DNA of 39,426 nucleotides from a virus (lineage: Duplodnaviria; Caudoviricetes): positions 1 through 39,426 of the IMG/VR virus record IMGVR_UViG_3300017780_002683; one strand, written 5' to 3'. The position numbers and the translations under genes are program-made. A model generated the notes under the pieces. It had not been told where the DNA came from. It made no database searches and was given only the letters and a program-made list of their open reading frames with translations. This document shows positions 8,412 through 32,565 of the stretch, piece after piece. Position 1 is the stretch's first letter. Each line of letters begins with the position of its first letter.

Positions 8412-9941
8412 TTAATAGTAGGCAGCAGAGCGCCGGCGAAATAACTGCGGCTCATCTTTGCGGTCAGACGATAGCGACACAAAGCCCCCGCGTCTATAGC
8501 GCGCCAGGGCCATTGAAACACAGTCAACGAAGTCGTCGTGCTCGCCGTGGGGAAACTCCGCACATTCATTGATCACCTCGAACGCCCAGCGGTGATCTGG
8601 CGCCCAGACAACTTTATCGAACAGCATGGGTGCCACCGAGTTAACTCGCGCTCTCTTGTCATTGGACACACCTGCGCCTGCGCGTGACGGGCTGTAGTCT
8701 TCAACAATCAGCTCCATCTGACGAAGCTCCTGGATGAGCGGGGCACCGGCGGCCTTCTTCTCGATCAGCAGACACTCGGGCTGCCACTCCTTGTACTCGT
8801 CCATCGCCTTTTGCTTGAGCTGTGGGAACTCCCAACGCCCCTTGACCGCGTTGAGCATGATGATCTCATGGCGGCTGGTCTCTTCGTTGAACCACACACC
8901 CCATGTAATACAGGCGCTAAAGTCATTGTGGCTCTTCGTGTCGTGCGCCGTGTCCCAGACCTGGATCACAAACTCCACATCGGGCGGGTCGTCCTTCTCC
9001 CATATCTGCCACCACTCGCGCTTGAGGATGGCGCCCTCCTCGGACGTGGGCTCCTGCATGTACTGCGCGGCCCAGAACTGGGGCTGCATACCGGCCTTCT
9101 TTGCCAGCAACTGATTCACGGGCCACTGCTCAGGCCACAAGCTCTTGCCAGACGGCAGGATGGCTGGGAACCGCACTTCAGTCCAAGGCGTGCTGTTGGG
9201 GTTGTTCTCTGCCCAGGCCAGCGCCCTGCCGATCGGATCTTTCTTACCCCAGCGTGTACCAATCATGATAATGCGCCCACCGGGCATCAAGCGTTGGATA
9301 GGGCCGACCTGCATGTACTCCCACGCCACAGAGAACGCATGATCCGGGTTGGCCAAGACTGACTGTTCCGAGACCAAGTCATCGACCACCAGAAGGTGGG
9401 CGCCGTGCCCAGCTACGTTAGCGCCGATACCGATGGCCAGATACTTGCCGCCCGCAGTCGTCGTCCAGTTGTCTGCCGCGCTCTTGTCTTTAGAGACGGT
9501 GGTGTTGGGGAATATCTCCCGGTACGCTTTTGTGTCGAGCAGGTTGCGCACCTTACGCCCGAAGTCAGCGGAGAGCGCTGCCGTGTGGGTGGCCATCATA
9601 ATGTGATGACTAGGCAAGTGCCCCAAGTACCACGCCACAAACATATAGGCGATCGTCTCTGACTTACCGAAGCGTGGGGGCATGCTGACCGTCAGCCGCG
9701 TCTCTTCACCGTCCCGCACTTTGTGTAGCAACGGCTTCATATAGCGGTGATGGGGGCCTTCTTTCCACTCAGGGTATAGGTGGGCGCAGAACGTCAGAAA
9801 ATCGTCACGGCAGCGCTTTAAGAGCTTCTTGTGCTCAAGTGTTTCCAACTCACTCAGCAAGGCTTCCTTCTCTGCCAGCGGCATGCTGGGCAGGTTTGCC
9901 ACCAAAGCGGCTATCGCCTCTGATGAGAGTTCCTCAAGCAT
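8412..9941 (-). CDS. terL: Terminase large subunit
   Basis: Walker A PPRFGKS, Walker B LLVVDD, nuclease motifs WDTA and HDDFVD. Confidence 0.93.
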   Translation of the reverse strand: MLEELSSEAIAALVANLPSMPLAEKEALLSELETLEHKKLLKRCRDDFLTFCAHLYPEWKEGPHHRYMKPLLHKVRDGEETRLTVSMPPRFGKSETIAYMFVAWYLGHLPSHHIMMATHTAALSADFGRKVRNLLDTKAYREIFPNTTVSKDKSAADNWTTTAGGKYLAIGIGANVAGHGAHLLVVDDLVSEQSVLANPDHAFSVAWEYMQVGPIQRLMPGGRIIMIGTRWGKKDPIGRALAWAENNPNSTPWTEVRFPAILPSGKSLWPEQWPVNQLLAKKAGMQPQFWAAQYMQEPTSEEGAILKREWWQIWEKDDPPDVEFVIQVWDTAHDTKSHNDFSACITWGVWFNEETSRHEIIMLNAVKGRWEFPQLKQKAMDEYKEWQPECLLIEKKAAGAPLIQELRQMELIVEDYSPSRAGAGVSNDKRARVNSVAPMLFDKVVWAPDHRWAFEVINECAEFPHGEHDDFVDCVSMALARYRRGGFVSLSSDRKDEPQLFRRRSAAYY

Positions 9942-10551
9942 CCCGGCGCTCTACGACTTGACCGATCTCAGCGTCGATGGACTTCACGTCAATAACTTCT
10001 GCTGGCGTGGCGCTGGACGGGATGTTGGTGATGAACTTAGCCAAGCGCTCGCGCAGGCGCTTCTCGATCTCTTCTTCGCTGGCATCCTTCTTGGTGACTT
10101 CCACGCGCTCAGTAAAGAGTGCAACCTCCGTCACGTTGCCAAGCATCTGCAAGGCTTTCAGCCTGATGTTAGCGTTGGGGTTGGTTGTCTCTTCGACGAT
10201 TTTCGCTACAGCGTAGCCGCGCAGTTCCTTGGCCTGATGGATGAAGTCCCAATCATAGGCCGTCAGCATTCCTGTGAGGTGCTGCACTGCGGCAGGCGTC
10301 TTTATAGCGGCAAGGGCTTGCTTCTGCGTTGCGCTGCTGAGATCGAAATTAAGCGCGGTGAAAGCTGTCCGTGCGGCTTTGGTTTGCTGCTTGTCGTCTA
10401 CGTCTTTGTCTGAGGGGACTCCAAGGTCTTCAAGCCATGCCGCCGTCTCTAATTGAGCGTCGAGCATAGTAGCAGCGCCTACCTGCTCTATAGGAGTGAA
10501 GTCGCCTGCTGGTGATATTTCAGGCTCGAATTGCACCAAGTTCTCAAACAT
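9934..10551 (-). CDS. Putative terminase small subunit
   Basis: Overlaps the terL start; RLKALQMLG helix typical of TerS; start ambiguous (ATG 10551 or 10602). Confidence 0.65.
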   Translation of the reverse strand: MFENLVQFEPEISPAGDFTPIEQVGAATMLDAQLETAAWLEDLGVPSDKDVDDKQQTKAARTAFTALNFDLSSATQKQALAAIKTPAAVQHLTGMLTAYDWDFIHQAKELRGYAVAKIVEETTNPNANIRLKALQMLGNVTEVALFTERVEVTKKDASEEEIEKRLRERLAKFITNIPSSATPAEVIDVKSIDAEIGQVVERRDA

Positions 10552-10574
10552 TTGCGTATGCGTAGATGACATAT

Positions 10575-10603
10575 TTGCCTTCTCGTTGGTCGCAGTGTAC
10601 ATT
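10575..10603 (+). promoter_or_regulatory. Sigma70-type promoter for candidate sRNA
   Basis: TTGCCT(10575-80)-17 bp-TACATT(10598-603). Confidence 0.5.
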
Positions 10604-10609
10604 TACTTC

Positions 10610-10688
10610 GCGCTTTGCGCACATCTCTCTCCTGTTAGTTTTGTCTGAACCTCCTCCATTGCCCGCTTGGTTTCAAGCGGGCTTTTTT
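10610..10688 (+). ncRNA. Candidate anti-Shine-Dalgarno small RNA (~80 nt)
   Basis: Bounded by a promoter and an intrinsic terminator; contains UCUCUCCUGUUA and CCUCCUCC. Confidence 0.5.
10661..10688 (+). terminator. Rho-independent terminator
   Basis: GCCCGCTTG-GTTT-CAAGCGGGC-TTTTTT. Confidence 0.8.
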
Positions 10689-10852
10689 GCCTACTAATGT
10701 CTAAAGTTTTACAAAGAGCTATGCAAAATTTTTATAGTGGGGGTGGGGGGTCTAATTATTCAAAGCGCAACCTCAAGAGCATAACGCGAACCGCAAGGGC
10801 ATTAGCTAAAAAGACATAACGATGCGTCGCTGAATTTTTATAGTGGGTGGTG

Positions 10853-10940
10853 CTTAAATTGGCATAACTACACAGTGCGCTGGTCTTACTTAAATTGGCA
10901 TAACACACAATGCGCCGGCCTTACTTAAATTGGCATAACT
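10853..10940. repeat. ~36-bp tandem repeat, 2.5 copies
   Basis: CTTAAATTGGCATAAC at 10853, 10889 and 10924 with similar intervening sequence. Confidence 0.9.
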
Positions 10941-11046
10941 GTGTAGCGTGGTTGTGAAATACTGTTCCTGCCAAGCTCCCCTGCCCTCGTCATACAGCGG
11001 GGGGTGCCGGTACGGTGGGGTCGCGCCTGGGGCGATTGGCTGGAAT

Positions 11047-11162
11047 CGCTCTGCCGCTCTGCCGCTCTGCCGCTCTGCCGCTCTGCCGGCTCGCTGTGCT
11101 GTGCTGTGCTGTGCTGTGCTGTGCTGTGCTGTGCTGTGCTGTGCTGTGCTGTGCTGTGCTGT
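11047..11162. repeat. Adjacent microsatellites (CGCTCTGC)x5 and (GCTGT)x14
   Basis: Direct reading: 11047-11086 and 11093-11162. Confidence 0.95.
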
Positions 11163-11229
11163 GCCTGAATAAACTCAAGGCATGGGGTTTTCACCTATCA
11201 AACAGTTTATTGAAACGTCGATAAACCTA

Positions 11230-12361: not shown

Positions 12362-12687
12362 CGCATGCCCCTGCACTTCGCACAAAAAATCTGTGACACG
12401 TGTCACACTTTCCAAAATGCACACTCAAATAATTTCATACCTCACGCACCTTCTGAACATCAAACACGTACCCTTTCGCGTGGCGCTCTTAATCGTCGCG
12501 GCCCACTATCGCCAACCCACGCACACAATCGAACGCCTCTTTCACCGCGAAAATCTCTAACACTGGTCGGAAACGCCCAGCCCCTTAAGGCTAAAATGCC
12601 AATCTCACACAAAATAAACTGTTACATACAATTTAGAGTTCTCATTTTTCAACAATCCTAAATAAAGGTTGTCAAGCGTCGGCCTCT

Positions 12688-13096
12688 AACCCGCATGGAT
12701 GCTAGCGTCTAGGGGGGACTGGCTTTGCTACCCATATATATATATCTATTAAAAGAGATTTATATATAAGCACACTTTTTTCCTCTTTTTTCTTTTTTCT
12801 TTTTTCTTTTTTCTTTTTTCTTTTGAAAAAGAAAAATTTTTTTAGTTTGCTTTTGATGTGGGGAAAAAGTAGGTAGGAAGGCCAGTACCCCCTCCAACCC
12901 GCATGAATGCTTGCTCTCCAGCCATTCCTTGCCAAGATTTAGAATGCCCGAAATTGAAATAATAGGCCAGTAACCCCCCCCCTCTTTTTATGACCTCCCC
13001 GCTAACCCGCATGGATCCTTACGCTCAGAATTCCGGTTGTTTTCAATGTCAAACGAGTCTATGAGGCCAGAACCCCCCGAAACCCGCATGGATGCT
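12688..13096. repeat. Iteron-like repeats flanking an AT-rich tract (candidate origin)
   Basis: AACCCGCATGRATSCT at 12688, 12896, 13004, 13081; GGCCAGWA(A)CCCCC at 12880, 12965, 13065; (TA)n and (CTTTTTT)n tract at about 12734-12855. Confidence 0.75.
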
Positions 13097-13503: not shown

Positions 13504-13580
13504 AAGCAGAAAATAAAAAGTGTGACACCACGTCACACTTTTCTAGACAACCACCCACCAACGCACAAGGAACCTACATC

Positions 13581-14049: not shown

Positions 14050-14121
14050 TAAACGCAGAATAAAAAGTGTGACACCACGTCACACTTTCCACCACCAACC
14101 AACCCACAAGGAACCCGCACC

Positions 14122-19592: not shown

Positions 19593-19710
19593 GCCCAAGC
19601 CCCCTCAGAGGGGCAGTCAAAGCAGTAAGAGTAGTAACCAGCATGGCCCTGTGCAGCGCGTTGATACGCTGTGCGCTGCTGTGCCTCACTTAAAAACAGG
19701 AGAGAAGAGA

Positions 19711-19947: not shown

Positions 19948-20336
19948 CAACACTAAAAGAAGCCGCCGAAATGGCGCTTGATGCGCTTGAGAACGTTGGC
20001 GTAGAGGGGAATTGGGAGCGAGAAGATGCGGCTGTAGTCGCCTTACGCGAAGCACTAGACGCCCACAGCATGGCGAGTGACGCAAGCCCAGTAGCCTGGA
20101 TGCACACGAACGCAGTCGGTCACCGGTACTTCAGAAAGAAACCGCACGACGCCGTGTTCAACCCGCAAGCGGTTTATGTGCAGCCACCCCGACGCGAATG
20201 GCTGGGGCTGACACACGAAGAACGTGACGAGATATGTAAAGACTTCGTTGGTGACGACGGTCGCGTAGGCGCATACCTCAGCCTCGCGCTAGAAGTAGAA
20301 GTCCGTCTGACAGAAAAGAACAGGAGTGAGGAATGA
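19944..20336 (+). CDS. Hypothetical modular protein (PVAWM module)
   Basis: ATGA overlap; MTTLKEAAEMALDALE...PVAWM...WLGLTHEE. Confidence 0.7.
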   Translation: MTTLKEAAEMALDALENVGVEGNWEREDAAVVALREALDAHSMASDASPVAWMHTNAVGHRYFRKKPHDAVFNPQAVYVQPPRREWLGLTHEERDEICKDFVGDDGRVGAYLSLALEVEVRLTEKNRSEE

Positions 20337-28127: not shown

Positions 28128-30560
28128 ATGGAGATTCTGGACGATAAGGCCGTGCTTATCAGGACGCGCAATCCTGCGAAGTACACAGTAATACCGAAGA
28201 GTCGCATCGTCGAGGATCATGGCAACGGTGGCTACACCGTCGCTGTTTTCTTCGGCCTCGACGAGATGCGCGTGCTGCGCAACCTGGGCGTTAAGAAGGT
28301 TGTCTCGCCCATCACACGCAAGTACAACTGGCCCGGACGCTATCGTCCGATGGATCACCAAGTAGACACCGCATCGTTCCTGACGCTGCACCGCCGAGCG
28401 TTCTGCTTCAACGAGCCTGGGACAGGCAAGACGCTCTCCGCGCTGTGGGCGGCTGACTACTTGATGAAGCGTGGTGAGGTGCGGCGTGTGTTGATCCTGT
28501 GCCCGCTGTCGATCATGCACAGCGCCTGGATGGGGGACATCATGAACTCGGTGATGCACCGCAGCGCTGTCGTAGCCCACCATGCGCAGGCCTCGCGCAG
28601 AATAGAGCTGGTGCAGGGGGACTACGAGTTCGTCATTGCCAACTATGAGGGGCTGAACCTTATCAACCGCGAGGTGCTCAACGATGGCCGGTTCGATCTG
28701 ATCATTGTGGATGAGTGCTTTGTCGCAGGCACGCCAGTTGCAACTCCGTTGGGGAACCGCCCGATTGAACAGCTAGAAGCCGGGGACGAGGTCTTGACTT
28801 CTGACGGAGTAATGCGTATAAAAAGACTTGTACGCAACACTGCTACGCAATTGGTTGAGGTCAAACTTGGAAACGGAAAATCCATCCAGTGCACTCCAGA
28901 ACATCCGTTCTTTACTGATGCCGGCTGGGTGTGCGCCAAAAATCTTGCGGGAAGACGCCTTGTATCTGGCGTTGAGCTGTCCTGTTTGCGGGGTGGAGTA
29001 CCGCCGCAAAAAAGCGCAGATGCTCTGGTTTCTATCGAAGGGAATTCCGACTGGGGTTACCTGTTCCAGATCCTGCGCACGGAAGAGGTGGCATCTAATG
29101 AATCCCGGAGCCAGCTACTTCAGTCAGATGCCGCCAGATCAACGGGGAAAAACGTCGGGGCCGAAGACGCCAGAACATCGGGCGAAGCTGTCAGCAGTAG
29201 CGAAAGCCAACGGGCACAAACCGATTGTGCGGGGGGGAAACGGTACGGGCATGACGCCGATGGAGCAGTTGATTTCCGAGGTCTTACCTGTGGGGTGGGC
29301 ATGGAACTACCCAGTAGCGTTGGGCAAGAGGCAGCAAGGCTTTCCTACGAACTACAAGCTCGACTTTGCGTGGCCACACCTCAAGGTGGGGCTGGAAGTG
29401 GACGGGGGCAGCCACACACTGTTAGCGCGGCAAGCGCAGGATCGGAAGAAAGAAGCCAAGCTGGCGGAGCTTGGGTGGAGATTGTTTCGTATATCGAATG
29501 CCCAAACGGGGAGCCTGTATACAACCTCGAAGTTGAAGGAACACCTAACTACTTTGTTGGGGATCATTGGCTAGTCCACAACTGCAACGCATACAAGAAC
29601 CCCACGACCCAGCGCTGGAAGTCGCTGCAGTCAATCATTCAGCCGCACACGTATCTGTGGATGATGACGGGTACGCCCGCATCGCAGTCTCCCGTCGATG
29701 CGTACGGTCTGGCCAAGCTCGTGAACCCGAACGGTGTGCCGAAGTTCTACACCGCGTGGCGCGACAAGGTCATGAACAAGATCACGCAGTTCAAGTGGGC
29801 GCCTAAGCCTGAGTCCAAGACGCTGGTACACGAGGCACTGCAGCCAGCGATCCGGTTCACCAAGGCACAGTGTTTGGATCTGCCGCCGGTACTGACAGTC
29901 ACCCGTGACGTAGCGCTCTCGCCTCAACAGACGAAGTACTACAAGCTGCTCAAAGAACAGATGCTGGTGCAGGCTGCCGGCGAGACGATCAGCGCAGTGA
30001 ATGCGGGCGTGATGGTCAGTAAGCTCTTGCAGGTGTCGTGCGGTGCGGCATACACCGACGACAGGGAAGTGGTTGAGTTCGACGCATCAGCACGGCTTAA
30101 AGTCTTGATGGAGGTCATCGAGGAGACCAACCGCAAGGTCATCATCTTCGCAATGTTCCGCTCTAGTATCGACACGATCACCACGTACCTGGAGAAGAAC
30201 AACGTCAAGACTGCGCAGATTCACGGCGACGTGAGTGCGACCAAGCGCGGGGTGATCATCAATGACTTCCAGCACACGCCCAATGTTCAGGTCTTGGTCA
30301 TGCAGCCCCAGGCTACGGCACACGGGATCACGCTGACTGCTGCCGACACGGTAGTGTTTTATGGCCCACTCATGAGCGTGGAGATGTACCTGCAATGTAT
30401 TGCGCGAGCCGACCGCAAGGGGCAGAACTCCGACAAAGTGACTGTGGTGCACATTCAAAGCAGCCCTATTGAACAAAAGATGTTCAAGGCTATGGCGTCC
30501 AAGGTAAGTGACCACGCACTACTCGTTGGCATGTTCGATAGCGAGGTTAAAAATAGTTGA
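28128..30560 (+). CDS. SNF2-like superfamily 2 helicase containing an intein
   Basis: EPGTGKT, IIVDE|C, MTGTP, HGITLT, QCIARADRKGQ motifs. Confidence 0.92.
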   Translation: MEILDDKAVLIRTRNPAKYTVIPKSRIVEDHGNGGYTVAVFFGLDEMRVLRNLGVKKVVSPITRKYNWPGRYRPMDHQVDTASFLTLHRRAFCFNEPGTGKTLSALWAADYLMKRGEVRRVLILCPLSIMHSAWMGDIMNSVMHRSAVVAHHAQASRRIELVQGDYEFVIANYEGLNLINREVLNDGRFDLIIVDECFVAGTPVATPLGNRPIEQLEAGDEVLTSDGVMRIKRLVRNTATQLVEVKLGNGKSIQCTPEHPFFTDAGWVCAKNLAGRRLVSGVELSCLRGGVPPQKSADALVSIEGNSDWGYLFQILRTEEVASNESRSQLLQSDAARSTGKNVGAEDARTSGEAVSSSESQRAQTDCAGGKRYGHDADGAVDFRGLTCGVGMELPSSVGQEAARLSYELQARLCVATPQGGAGSGRGQPHTVSAASAGSEERSQAGGAWVEIVSYIECPNGEPVYNLEVEGTPNYFVGDHWLVHNCNAYKNPTTQRWKSLQSIIQPHTYLWMMTGTPASQSPVDAYGLAKLVNPNGVPKFYTAWRDKVMNKITQFKWAPKPESKTLVHEALQPAIRFTKAQCLDLPPVLTVTRDVALSPQQTKYYKLLKEQMLVQAAGETISAVNAGVMVSKLLQVSCGAAYTDDREVVEFDASARLKVLMEVIEETNRKVIIFAMFRSSIDTITTYLEKNNVKTAQIHGDVSATKRGVIINDFQHTPNVQVLVMQPQATAHGITLTAADTVVFYGPLMSVEMYLQCIARADRKGQNSDKVTVVHIQSSPIEQKMFKAMASKVSDHALLVGMFDSEVKNS
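28716..29582 (+). mobile_element. Intein (289 aa) inserted in helicase motif II (DE|C)
   Basis: Block A CFVAGTPV, block B CTPEHPF, block F VYNLEVEGTPNYFV, block G LVHN followed by +1 Cys. Confidence 0.95.
28918..29574 (+). CDS. Out-of-frame (+1) endonuclease nested in the intein (Zn finger, NUMOD3-like, DUF559/Vsr-like)
   Basis: CPVC...CSRSC; KTPEHRAKLSAVAK; YKLDFAWPHLKVGLEVDGGSH...QDRKKEAKLAELGWRLFRISN; start uncertain (28828, 28918 or TTG 28960). Confidence 0.85.
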   Translation: MPAGCAPKILREDALYLALSCPVCGVEYRRKKAQMLWFLSKGIPTGVTCSRSCARKRWHLMNPGASYFSQMPPDQRGKTSGPKTPEHRAKLSAVAKANGHKPIVRGGNGTGMTPMEQLISEVLPVGWAWNYPVALGKRQQGFPTNYKLDFAWPHLKVGLEVDGGSHTLLARQAQDRKKEAKLAELGWRLFRISNAQTGSLYTTSKLKEHLTTLLGIIG

Positions 30561-30640
30561 AAAAGAGGGCATACAAGCCGCAAAATTAGGGCTATGATTG
30601 TCAAAGGTTAGACAAATAAGACAGGTAACAGGAGAGAAAA

Positions 30641-31057
30641 ATGAATCAAGACAACGAATCCGCCAGCATTCCTATGGACAAGCTGGCCCGGGTGTATCGC
30701 AAGATGCAGGCCCGGATTCAAGAACTGACGACGGCTTACGAGACCGAGGTCGAGACGCTCAAAGCGCAGCAAGAAGCTGTGAAGACGGCGCTCAAAGACA
30801 AGATGTTGGCTCTCGGGGTCAAGTCAGTTAGTACGGAGGAGGGCACAGTAATTCTCTCCACTAAGACCCGCTACGCGACCCAAGACTGGGATTCGTTCAA
30901 GCAGTTCGTGGTGGAGCACGATGCACTAGACCTGTTTGAGAAGCGCATTGCGCAGACCAACATGTCGACCTTCTTGAAAGAAAACCCAGGCTTAGTTCCG
31001 CCTGGGCTCAACAGCAACTCTGAATACGCGATCAGCGTAAGGAAGCCTTCAAAATGA
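30641..31057 (+). CDS. Conserved hypothetical protein of the replication module
   Basis: AGGAG RBS, TATGAT -10 at 30593; N-terminal coiled coil, DWDSF...LFEKRIAQ...PPGL. Confidence 0.8.
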   Translation: MNQDNESASIPMDKLARVYRKMQARIQELTTAYETEVETLKAQQEAVKTALKDKMLALGVKSVSTEEGTVILSTKTRYATQDWDSFKQFVVEHDALDLFEKRIAQTNMSTFLKENPGLVPPGLNSNSEYAISVRKPSK

Positions 31058-31215
31058 ACATGACCTTTACCTTCACCCAGCAACAAGCCCAAGTCTTGCT
31101 TAACGCCTTGGCACAACGCCCCTACGCTGAAGTCAGCGGCCTGATCGAGACTCTCGTAACCCAAGCCCGCGCTCAAGAAGAAGCCGCAGCTAACACCAAA
31201 GAGGAACAGCAATGA
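31054..31215 (+). CDS. Small hypothetical protein (53 aa)
   Basis: ATGA overlaps at both ends; LLNALAQRPYAEVSGLI; not in ORF track. Confidence 0.6.
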   Translation: MNMTFTFTQQQAQVLLNALAQRPYAEVSGLIETLVTQARAQEEAAANTKEEQQ

Positions 31216-32207
31216 GCAACGTAACCGTTTTCAACCCATCTAACGTCCCCGCCTTCGCCCGTAAGGGTGAACTGTCTGACATGGCCAAGGCCCTGGCGGG
31301 CGGCGGCGCTGCTGGTGGCAAGCGTGTCTCTATCAAGGGCGGTGTGTTCCGCTTGATGTCCGGCGGCAAGGAAGTTGCCAACATCGAGGACAGGCATCTC
31401 GACATCGTGATGGTCAAGGCGGCCTCCAAGGTCAGCCGCGTTTTCTACGCAAAGAGCTATGACGCTGAGTCCGTGTCCGGCCCTGACTGCTGGTCAGCAG
31501 ACGGCGACAAGCCTAGCTCCGAGGCAGCCAGCCCCCAGGCATCCCGCTGCGCTGAGTGCCCCAAGAACATCGCAGGCTCTGGCCAAGGTAACAGCCGCGC
31601 TTGCCGCTATCAACAGCGTCTGGCTGTGGTGCTTGAGAACGACATGAGCGGTGACGTGCTGCAGTTGGCTCTGCCCGCTACGTCGATCTTCGGGAAAGCC
31701 GAGGGGGATAACCGCCCGCTGCAAGAGTATGCTCGGTGGCTGGTGGCCCAAGGCATTAACCCAGAGGCAGTCGTTACCCGCATGAAGTTCGACACCAAGT
31801 CAGAGTCGCCCAAGCTGCACTTCAAAGCGATGCGCTGGCTGAGTGATGACGAGTATGAAATCGTCGAACAACAAGCGGCAACGGATGATGCAGTCAAGGC
31901 CGTCACGATGACCGTGGCGAAGATGGACGCAGCGCCTGAAGCACCTGCTGCTCTGGCCGGCAAGCCGCCCGCTAAGGTCAAGCCCGCACCCGCACCTGCT
32001 CCGGCAGTTGAGGAAGAGTCTGAGGATGAAGAAGTTGCCGCAGTTGCAGCGCCGAAAGCACGTAAGGCCAAGGCAGCACCTGCTCCGGTAGTTGAGGAGC
32101 CGGAAGAAGTTGAAGAGCCTGCTGTGCGTAAGGAAGCGCCTAAGAAGCCCGCTGTGGAAGGCAAGAGCGCCCTTGCTGACATGGTGAGCGACTGGGACGA
32201 CGAGTAA
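31212..32207 (+). CDS. Putative ssDNA-binding protein
   Basis: RVSIKGGVF, PDCWS...CAECPKN...RAC; Pro/Ala/Glu linker and acidic-aromatic C-terminus DWDDE. Confidence 0.55.
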   Translation: MSNVTVFNPSNVPAFARKGELSDMAKALAGGGAAGGKRVSIKGGVFRLMSGGKEVANIEDRHLDIVMVKAASKVSRVFYAKSYDAESVSGPDCWSADGDKPSSEAASPQASRCAECPKNIAGSGQGNSRACRYQQRLAVVLENDMSGDVLQLALPATSIFGKAEGDNRPLQEYARWLVAQGINPEAVVTRMKFDTKSESPKLHFKAMRWLSDDEYEIVEQQAATDDAVKAVTMTVAKMDAAPEAPAALAGKPPAKVKPAPAPAPAVEEESEDEEVAAVAAPKARKAKAAPAPVVEEPEEVEEPAVRKEAPKKPAVEGKSALADMVSDWDDE

Positions 32208-32289: not shown

Positions 32290-32565
32290 ATGTACCACCA
32301 CAAGTTCGTTGTCCAGATAAAGGAGCAGCCGCTTTCACTCGGAACACGCCTAGCAAAGTGGGCCATATTCCTGGATGTACCAGTCACCAAGATCGCACGC
32401 GCCGTAGGATCTACGCGCCAGTCGGTCTACAACTGGATGAAAGGCGGTGAAGTATTCGTCGCCTACCGCCCTGCGGTAGAGCGGATCGTTGAAATATTAC
32501 AGGCGTCGAAAACGTCTGAAGAAGCGTGGAGCAAAATATGCAAGGCATTCAACCTACATCCCTGA
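32290..32565 (+). CDS. Cro/XRE-like HTH regulator
   Basis: VTKIARAVGSTRQSVYNWMKG. Confidence 0.8.
   Translation: MYHHKFVVQIKEQPLSLGTRLAKWAIFLDVPVTKIARAVGSTRQSVYNWMKGGEVFVAYRPAVERIVEILQASKTSEEAWSKICKAFNLHP

Follow-up and report, generated by a model that had tools for sequence, protein, structure and literature searches.

The window, the whole 39,426-nt stretch of DNA that we analyzed, is a 39-kb piece of a podophage-like genome. Genes for terminase, portal, GroES, and capsid lie on its minus strand; small early genes, DNA polymerase and helicase genes, and a primase-like gene lie on its plus strand. The large terminase subunit, TerL, is 43 to 44% identical to those of HTVC023P, HTVC027P, and DSL-LC04, podoviruses of the HTVC023P type (PMC9599517), which have a similar portal-GroES-capsid order. 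A search confined to tyrosine integrases found no match in 5 of 5 complete relatives. Contigs of the family occur in three bacterial bins, whose taxa are unrelated to each other. No tRNA genes were found in the window; in two relatives (L478 and L500), tRNA genes adjoin the RNA unit described below.

Several other features of the window stand apart from that unit. Tandem repeats with periods of 35, 8, 5, and 7 lie at 10853-11164 and 12784-12824, in the non-coding gap between the gene arms. A palindrome, GTGTGAC..GTCACAC, is repeated before small early genes (12393-12410, 13520-13543, and 14065-14090), with leaders of the form AAGGAACCTACATC-ATG or GGAGCACCTACACC-ATG; this arrangement looks like a repeated control module of early genes. 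The SNF2-type helicase gene at 28128-30560 contains an intein (Pfam Intein_splicing), and its 521-aa homologue in relative G016 gave no intein match.

The first gene of the packaging arm is called terS by synteny, because its product has no informative Pfam or PHROG match. The conserved start is the ATG at 10551 (MFE). An alternative ATG at 10602 was rejected as a start because relatives do not share it and it falls within the −10 boxes; another in-frame ATG, at 10572, is not conserved either. The predicted terS leader (10552-10587) has no clear Shine-Dalgarno (SD) sequence before ATG 10551, and several relatives have GGAGG. Upstream, each strand of the palindromic region 10594-10603 has a −10 box of its own; transcription is predicted to start at 10587 on the minus strand and at 10610 on the plus strand, so that the two starts are divergent and 23 bp apart. 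At the terS −35 box, GCAA on the plus strand is nearly invariant across relatives. Bidirectional sigma70 promoters with a shared −10 element resemble this arrangement: in the account of PMC12825309, symmetric −10 boxes commonly yield divergent transcripts, and 23 bp is among the start spacings reported as common. Unlike the promoters described there, this one would serve a non-coding RNA and a phage packaging arm.

Table 1. Features of the small-RNA locus and of its predicted targets (window coordinates)
Feature	Position	Strand	Remarks
Putative terminase small subunit (TerS), 205 aa, starts MFE	9934-10551	-	Precedes TerL; first gene of packaging/virion arm
−35 box of small-RNA promoter, TTGCCT	10575-10580	+	From sequence; family has TTG at 17-bp spacing
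−10 box of putative terS promoter, TACACT	10594-10599	-	Overlaps plus-strand −10; predicted start ~10587
−10 box of small-RNA promoter, TACATT	10598-10603	+	TAnnnT kept; predicted start ~10610
Predicted small RNA, 79 nt	10610-10688	+	Fold z −3.2; model match
Hairpin 1 of predicted RNA	10610-10620	+	
−35 box of putative terS promoter, GTGCGC	10617-10622	-	TTGC.. in most relatives; inside first hairpin of RNA
Seed UCUCUCCUGUUA	10626-10637	+	Complement of 30641 ribosome-binding site (RBS); co-variation
Weak hairpin 2 of predicted RNA	10634-10647	+	
Second anti-SD stretch CCUCCUCC	10650-10657	+	In some relatives only
Intrinsic terminator, 9-bp stem and U6	Stem 10661-82, whole 10661-10688	+	No U-run on minus strand
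Imperfect palindrome TGTC-N8-TACA, operator-like	10698-10713	.	Follows terminator; putative role
RBS of gene 19711 (78 aa), a possible further target	19695-19705	+	11-nt match; −15.3 kcal/mol
Promoter −10 TATGAT and palindrome of target gene	30593-30614	+	Predicted start ~30605
Target RBS and start codon of 30641	30626-30643	+	Net interaction −18.6 kcal/mol
Main target gene, DUF7307 (Pam3 gp33-like), 138 aa	30641-31057	+	Upstream of HTH gene and primase-like gene

A sequence-only reading of this DNA had proposed that a small RNA with anti-SD seeds is encoded here, and a sequence check found every string that it named exactly where it had placed it. The boxes and 17-bp spacing of TTGCCT-17-TACATT are exact; this promoter matches the sigma70 consensus at only 8 of 12 positions and is not in the list of a promoter scanner, and its support comes from conservation. 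The 9-bp terminator stem followed by T6, the second anti-SD CCTCCTCC at 10650-57, the 12-nt complement between 10626-37 and 30626-37, the 11-nt seed match at 19695-705, and a second pairing site between 10640-52 and 30605-16 (with one bulge) are all present; the partial matches near 20320 and 21193 are 8-nt Watson-Crick runs at the leaders of genes 20333 and 21206. The seed partly doubles as a hairpin arm.

Nowhere else in the window does the 51-nt RNA body have longer complements than the 12 nt at 30626 and the 11 nt at 19695. When the CUCCU core was kept and the rest of the body was shuffled 20,000 times, a 12-nt run at 1 of the 29 SD-led plus-strand leaders arose in 1.4% of shuffles, and 12-nt and 11-nt runs together arose in 0.16%. 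The second site is altered in relatives with 97% identical TerS (L002-L004), and its partner falls inside a conserved DNA palindrome. RNA runs (4 of 12) yielded unstranded contigs, which carry neither strand nor ends; one stops at 10692 and one crosses the terminator. Because the seed matches within the window alone are suggestive, not decisive, we compared the locus with its relatives.

Conservation of the unit upstream of terS

Searches with TerS and TerL gathered 401 sequences; 231 had enough DNA upstream of terS, and these collapsed to 137 distinct regions. A promoter, a C/U-rich anti-SD seed, and an intrinsic terminator are present upstream of terS in 126 of the 137 and absent in 11. The terminator was called automatically in 122; 4 of the 15 negatives (L009, L022, L024, and L265) have an interrupted U-run, and their terminators were confirmed by the RNA model in two cases and by eye in two. 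Both −10 boxes (TAnnnT on each strand) are intact in 115 of 121 anchored units, with 5 of the 6 failures due to mis-anchoring by the search pattern and five more units lacking an anchor. The plus-strand −35 element, TTG, lies 17 bp before the −10 box (T 0.91, T 0.73, G 0.74). In all 11 regions that lack the unit, the minus-strand −10 box is kept and the final T of the plus-strand −10 box is lost; thus, the plus-strand promoter is retained along with the RNA. The portal tree calls for at least two independent losses of the unit, and it is dispensable in at least two lineages.

Among 118 units cut out cleanly from the terS-anchored set, on which the seed counts are based, CUCC is found in 111, UCUCCU in 94, and UGCUUCUCCU in 56. 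Another alignment, A3, was chosen by a pattern containing the seed, so seed invariance in A3 is circular. Model R2, built from 64 terS-anchored units with the clade of the window left out, has a sole match in the window, at 10594-10688 (E 0.0013), and had no significant match in the stretches retrieved from seven unit-lacking records, two distant relatives, and three cultured phages. Among cultured relatives, HTVC023P, DSL-LC04, and Pag-Yong1 differ from the window family in that the RNA models matched nothing significantly in 50-kb stretches of them. Model R1, built from pattern-selected sequences, missed the window and matched 0 of 41 genomes of the family of G074, a set with no positive control. 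BLAST of one typical unit against GenBank phages gave no match, and literature searches, which did not extend to the 38 phage sRNAs of unassigned function in Supplementary Table S1 of PMC12197685, found no publication on this RNA. Just past the unit (window 10725-10755), a conserved block of AAAATTTTTATA followed by G-rich GGGGGTGGGGGG also occurs in genomes without the RNA; it is possibly a packaging or genome-end signal.

In the usual fold, hairpin 1 is followed by a linker in which CUCCU is open (its unpaired probability averages 0.84), then by a hairpin 2 that varies, and finally by the terminator. The strand is indicated by the terminator U-run, found on the plus strand only, and by the hairpin-2 tetraloops, which are of the GNRA or UNCG type in 19 of 27 cases when read on the plus strand versus 2 of 27 on the minus strand. 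Hairpin-1 pairs vary mostly by A-U/G-U and C-G/U-G exchanges, in an alignment whose members had been chosen by the seed. Only 60 of 118 units have a minus-strand start codon at SD spacing, opening frames of 3 to >30 codons; because the starts are so few and the lengths so scattered, there is no conserved small open reading frame (ORF). The unit thus has its own promoter and terminator and no conserved ORF, as trans-encoded sRNAs do.

The seed tracks the leader of gene 30641

Gene 30641 overlaps 31054-31215, which in turn overlaps 31212-32207, both stop to start. Its product has a predicted fold with a pLDDT of 82, for which a PDB comparison gave no match at an E value of ≤0.001 and only generic coiled-coil rows (best Z, 5.8); BFVD matches are uncharacterised, Gp157 and a host-nuclease inhibitor appearing there only weakly. 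Before the 30641 homologue, relatives conserve TTGCAY-17-TATGAT and TGTYAAA..TTWGACA. After opening costs, the net interaction of the RNA in the window is strongest with 30641, the best of six leaders tested; other leaders reach −15.3 (19711), −14.2 (20333), and −11.3 (21206) kcal/mol.

Co-variation between the seed and the target RBS in relatives had been proposed as a check by the sequence-only reading, and we ran it on 23 genomes that have both the unit and a 30641 homologue, with gene starts called by a simple SD rule and the seed of G049 picked by hand. Once row and column effects were removed, cognate seed-leader duplexes were 3.1 kcal/mol stronger than permuted ones (P = 1e-5), with the proviso that the permutation treats lineages as independent even though they share ancestry and the family is mosaic. 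Among 47 gene clusters present in at least 10 of the 23 genomes, 30641 ranks first (z −6.0; next, −2.5) and has the strongest mean energy. With five near-duplicates dropped, 18 collapsed lineages gave a z of −6.1 for the whole RNA body and no chosen seed. Leave-one-out values range from −5.2 to −6.3, and the 13 consensus-type lineages alone reach −3.2; the reverse complement (z −0.6) and the terminator (z +1.1) served as controls. A longest-exact-match statistic for the 30641 leader gave a z of 4.3.

On the tree, seed and leader change together in the window, G009/G010, G049, G051, and G016; in G042, G053, and G059 the seed changed and the leader did not. Two further genomes served as a held-out check. 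The seed of G072 matches the divergent leader ACAGAAAGGAG of that genome over 11 nt, and this leader ranks 2 of 34; no exact match in the 84-kb contig is longer, and it falls at the RBS of the 30641 homologue. For G044 the outcome is only middling: set against leaders close to the consensus, its own takes place 10 of 34. Mismatches show no G·U bias (16 compatible versus 18 incompatible transitions in a crude ungapped count). In a noisy ranking over all possible starts that ignores accessibility, the target reaches the top 8 in only 8 of 18 genomes, and in G016 it drops to place 564. Linking target-only contigs with RNA-bearing fragments by overlap gave just two joins, of G036 with L308-type fragments and of G027 with the window, and these were left unused.

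Thus, promoter boxes, an exposed CUCCU seed, and a terminator are conserved throughout this large family of uncultured aquatic phages, and the seed tracks the 30641 leader between lineages. The short complementarity to a distant mRNA is conserved by co-variation, another hallmark of the trans-encoded class. Conservation of the unit together with seed-leader co-variation argues for the trans-acting repressor that had been proposed, at least with respect to the 30641 leader.

Competing explanations and known RNAs

The proposal had extended this repression to early and middle genes at large, for which support is weak once 30641 is set aside. Silencing of such genes as a group through a common AGGAGAAGCA-type RBS, with 30641 as the best-conserved member of the group, would fit the several early leaders per genome that pair over 9 to 13 nt and the strong bias of runs of at least 8 nt toward early-strand SD-led leaders (100 of 664 versus 6 of 380 on the late strand, where 3 of the 6 are the RNA's own antisense). 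This bias, however, persists in genomes without the unit (GGAGAAG at 15 of 90 early versus 0 of 68 late leaders), and the unit-lacking genomes G063 and G064 retain the consensus 30641 leader AGGAGAAGCAAATG, so the leader style is independent of the RNA. T4 early RBSs likewise consist of GGAG and an A-rich tract (PMC3014915), which shows that RBSs of this style exist without any such RNA. With 30641 removed, the best early leaders co-vary at a z of only −1.4 to −1.7 (P = 0.05 to 0.08), and the next gene clusters reach only −1.7 to −2.5. Because the other early leaders co-vary so weakly, we take 30641 as the main target and regard group silencing as unlikely. The RNA therefore appears to have fitted itself to an early RBS style that was already there, with 30641 as the main gene that keeps it in place.

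The unit could instead be a mere terminator for by-product transcription of a bidirectional terS promoter, its C/U stretch being incidental or a relic of a duplicated leader. The symmetry of the −10 boxes, the operator-like palindrome at both loci, and a seed that is partly a hairpin arm all lend themselves to such an origin, but lineages without the unit simply lose the plus-strand −10 box, which is a cheaper fix, and a terminator would explain neither the conserved plus-strand −35 box nor the plus-sense stable tetraloops in a non-terminator hairpin nor a seed that tracks a leader 20 kb off; we find this account improbable. Nor do we favor the ideas tied to terS and the minus strand. The sequence-only reading had the RNA lie antisense to the terminase leader and act as a cis-antisense timer of the packaging operon, an interpretation that fails because the predicted starts diverge and the RNAs would not overlap; as a cis-encoded antisense RNA of terS the unit was rejected, since no overlap was found between the transcripts expected from these predicted, unmapped starts. 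The related idea of an ordinary minus-strand RBS, named in advance as what would undo the proposal, finds some footing in the window, where the minus strand reads AGGAGAGAG-ATG and opens 22 codons, but not in the 118 units, given the scarce starts and scattered ORF lengths noted above, and the motif lies upstream of the terS −35 box. Either version is extremely unlikely.

Rfam searches of the window and 40 relative loci found no sRNA family above cutoff. The nearest Rfam family by layout is RF02278, the betaproteobacterial toxic or double-hairpin sRNAs (ncS27 of Burkholderia cenocepacia and S17 of Bordetella), which are also short RNAs with an unpaired CU-rich anti-RBS stretch, a hairpin, and an intrinsic terminator, and for which repression at RBSs is predicted or shown (PMC5688073, PMC11722255, PMC4603805). 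The phage units share this layout; the window scores 15 bits and the best relative 33.3, below the gathering cutoff of 50. Most phage units differ in adding a 5' hairpin and in their variable seed, which tracks a phage leader, whereas the 5' 27 nt of S17 are reported to be invariant (PMC5688073, PMC11722255, PMC4603805). A second CUCCUC in the loop of the first hairpin, an RF02278 trait, occurs in a few units (L267, L341, and L320) and is absent in most. Descent of the phage unit from RF02278 is possible. Could the unit encode a generic anti-SD RNA against host mRNAs in the Burkholderia style, diverting ribosomes to late phage mRNA? The sub-threshold RF02278 scores (22 to 33 bits versus 50) point that way, as does a candidate host genus, that of the sole Limnohabitans-labelled bin with a family contig, in which 16 of 21 genomes have RF02278 above cutoff; a host-directed RNA, however, need not co-vary with one phage leader, and we judge this role highly improbable.

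The nearest phage precedent is c4 of P1/P7, a phage RNA that blocks translation of phage mRNA around the RBS with phage-specific pairing (PMC12197685). As described there, c4 acts on antirepressor and immunity in temperate phages, unlike the present RNA, whose predicted target is a replication-arm gene in phages in which tyrosine integrase was not found. C4 (RF01695) gave no match in the Rfam searches of the window and relative loci, and the target encodes a DUF7307 protein rather than an antirepressor. An immunity or superinfection-exclusion RNA of a non-lytic state, similar to c4, would account for a host-type, constitutive-looking promoter and lineage-specific seeds, and one family contig does adjoin bacterial genes. 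Against it stand the 5 of 5 complete genomes without a tyrosine integrase and the one-sidedness of that junction, which may be a mis-assembly, and we give this reading almost no credence. At the junction itself (G072:C24 near 49.1 kb; L637:9000-9400), ~49 kb of family phage DNA meets Bacteroidota-type genes (type IX secretion and DNA ligase) just past the RNA unit; it may be a prophage or a mis-assembly.

Proposed mechanism and its meaning

We consider it likely that the unit, which is conserved, self-contained, and non-coding, encodes a trans-acting sRNA of ~80 nt that would pair with the SD sequence, spacer, and start codon of 30641 and block its translation. One bidirectional sigma70-type promoter would fire the terS/packaging arm in one direction and the RNA in the other, yielding a 79-nt transcript. 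The open CUCCU between the two hairpins would nucleate on AGGAG, and pairing would then invade the 3' arm of hairpin 1, covering the spacer and AUG and excluding the ribosome from 30641 mRNA. Output of the downstream genes 31054 and 31212 would drop as well, because the three genes overlap stop to start. Side effects would reach a few more early genes that share this A-rich RBS, and the RBSs of virion genes would escape because their AGGAG is rarely continued with A.

Timing may be supplied at the level of transcription. Both promoters resemble host sigma70 promoters. The imperfect palindrome following the terminator (TGTC-N8-GACA type) has only one other copy in the window, at 30599-30614, where it overlaps the point at which 30641 transcription is predicted to begin; under stricter criteria, each of 13 genomes has 0 to 3 copies. 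An HTH gene at 32290-32565 has weak Pfam matches, and the palindromes at 10698 and 30599 are a candidate operator for its product. Palindromes and HTH protein together may provide this timing.

The nearest functional analogy is T4 RegB, an endoribonuclease that inactivates early mRNAs at GGAG and an A-rich tract (GGAGRAYARAA) and spares late ones (PMC3014915); RegB is a protein nuclease, and the phage unit here is a predicted RNA. A bolder and rather doubtful idea, offered tentatively, is that widespread, apparently lytic phages possess an RNA-only developmental switch, an RNA counterpart of RegB: a symmetric promoter would start the packaging/virion arm and at the same time release an RNA closing down the replication-arm operon through its first RBS; seed and target would evolve together like lock and key. 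Among the phage small RNAs described in PMC12197685, most belong to temperate phages, work in cis, or are directed at the host. Here the RNA is family-wide in phages in which no tyrosine integrase was found, and co-variation by itself is enough to name its phage target; naturally occurring pairs, cognate and non-cognate, provide a ready two-plasmid test. If the proposal is true, the lytic program of an abundant aquatic phage group would gain trans-acting RNA control physically linked to the packaging promoter, and an uncharacterised DUF7307 protein would be flagged as one that needs a dose limit.
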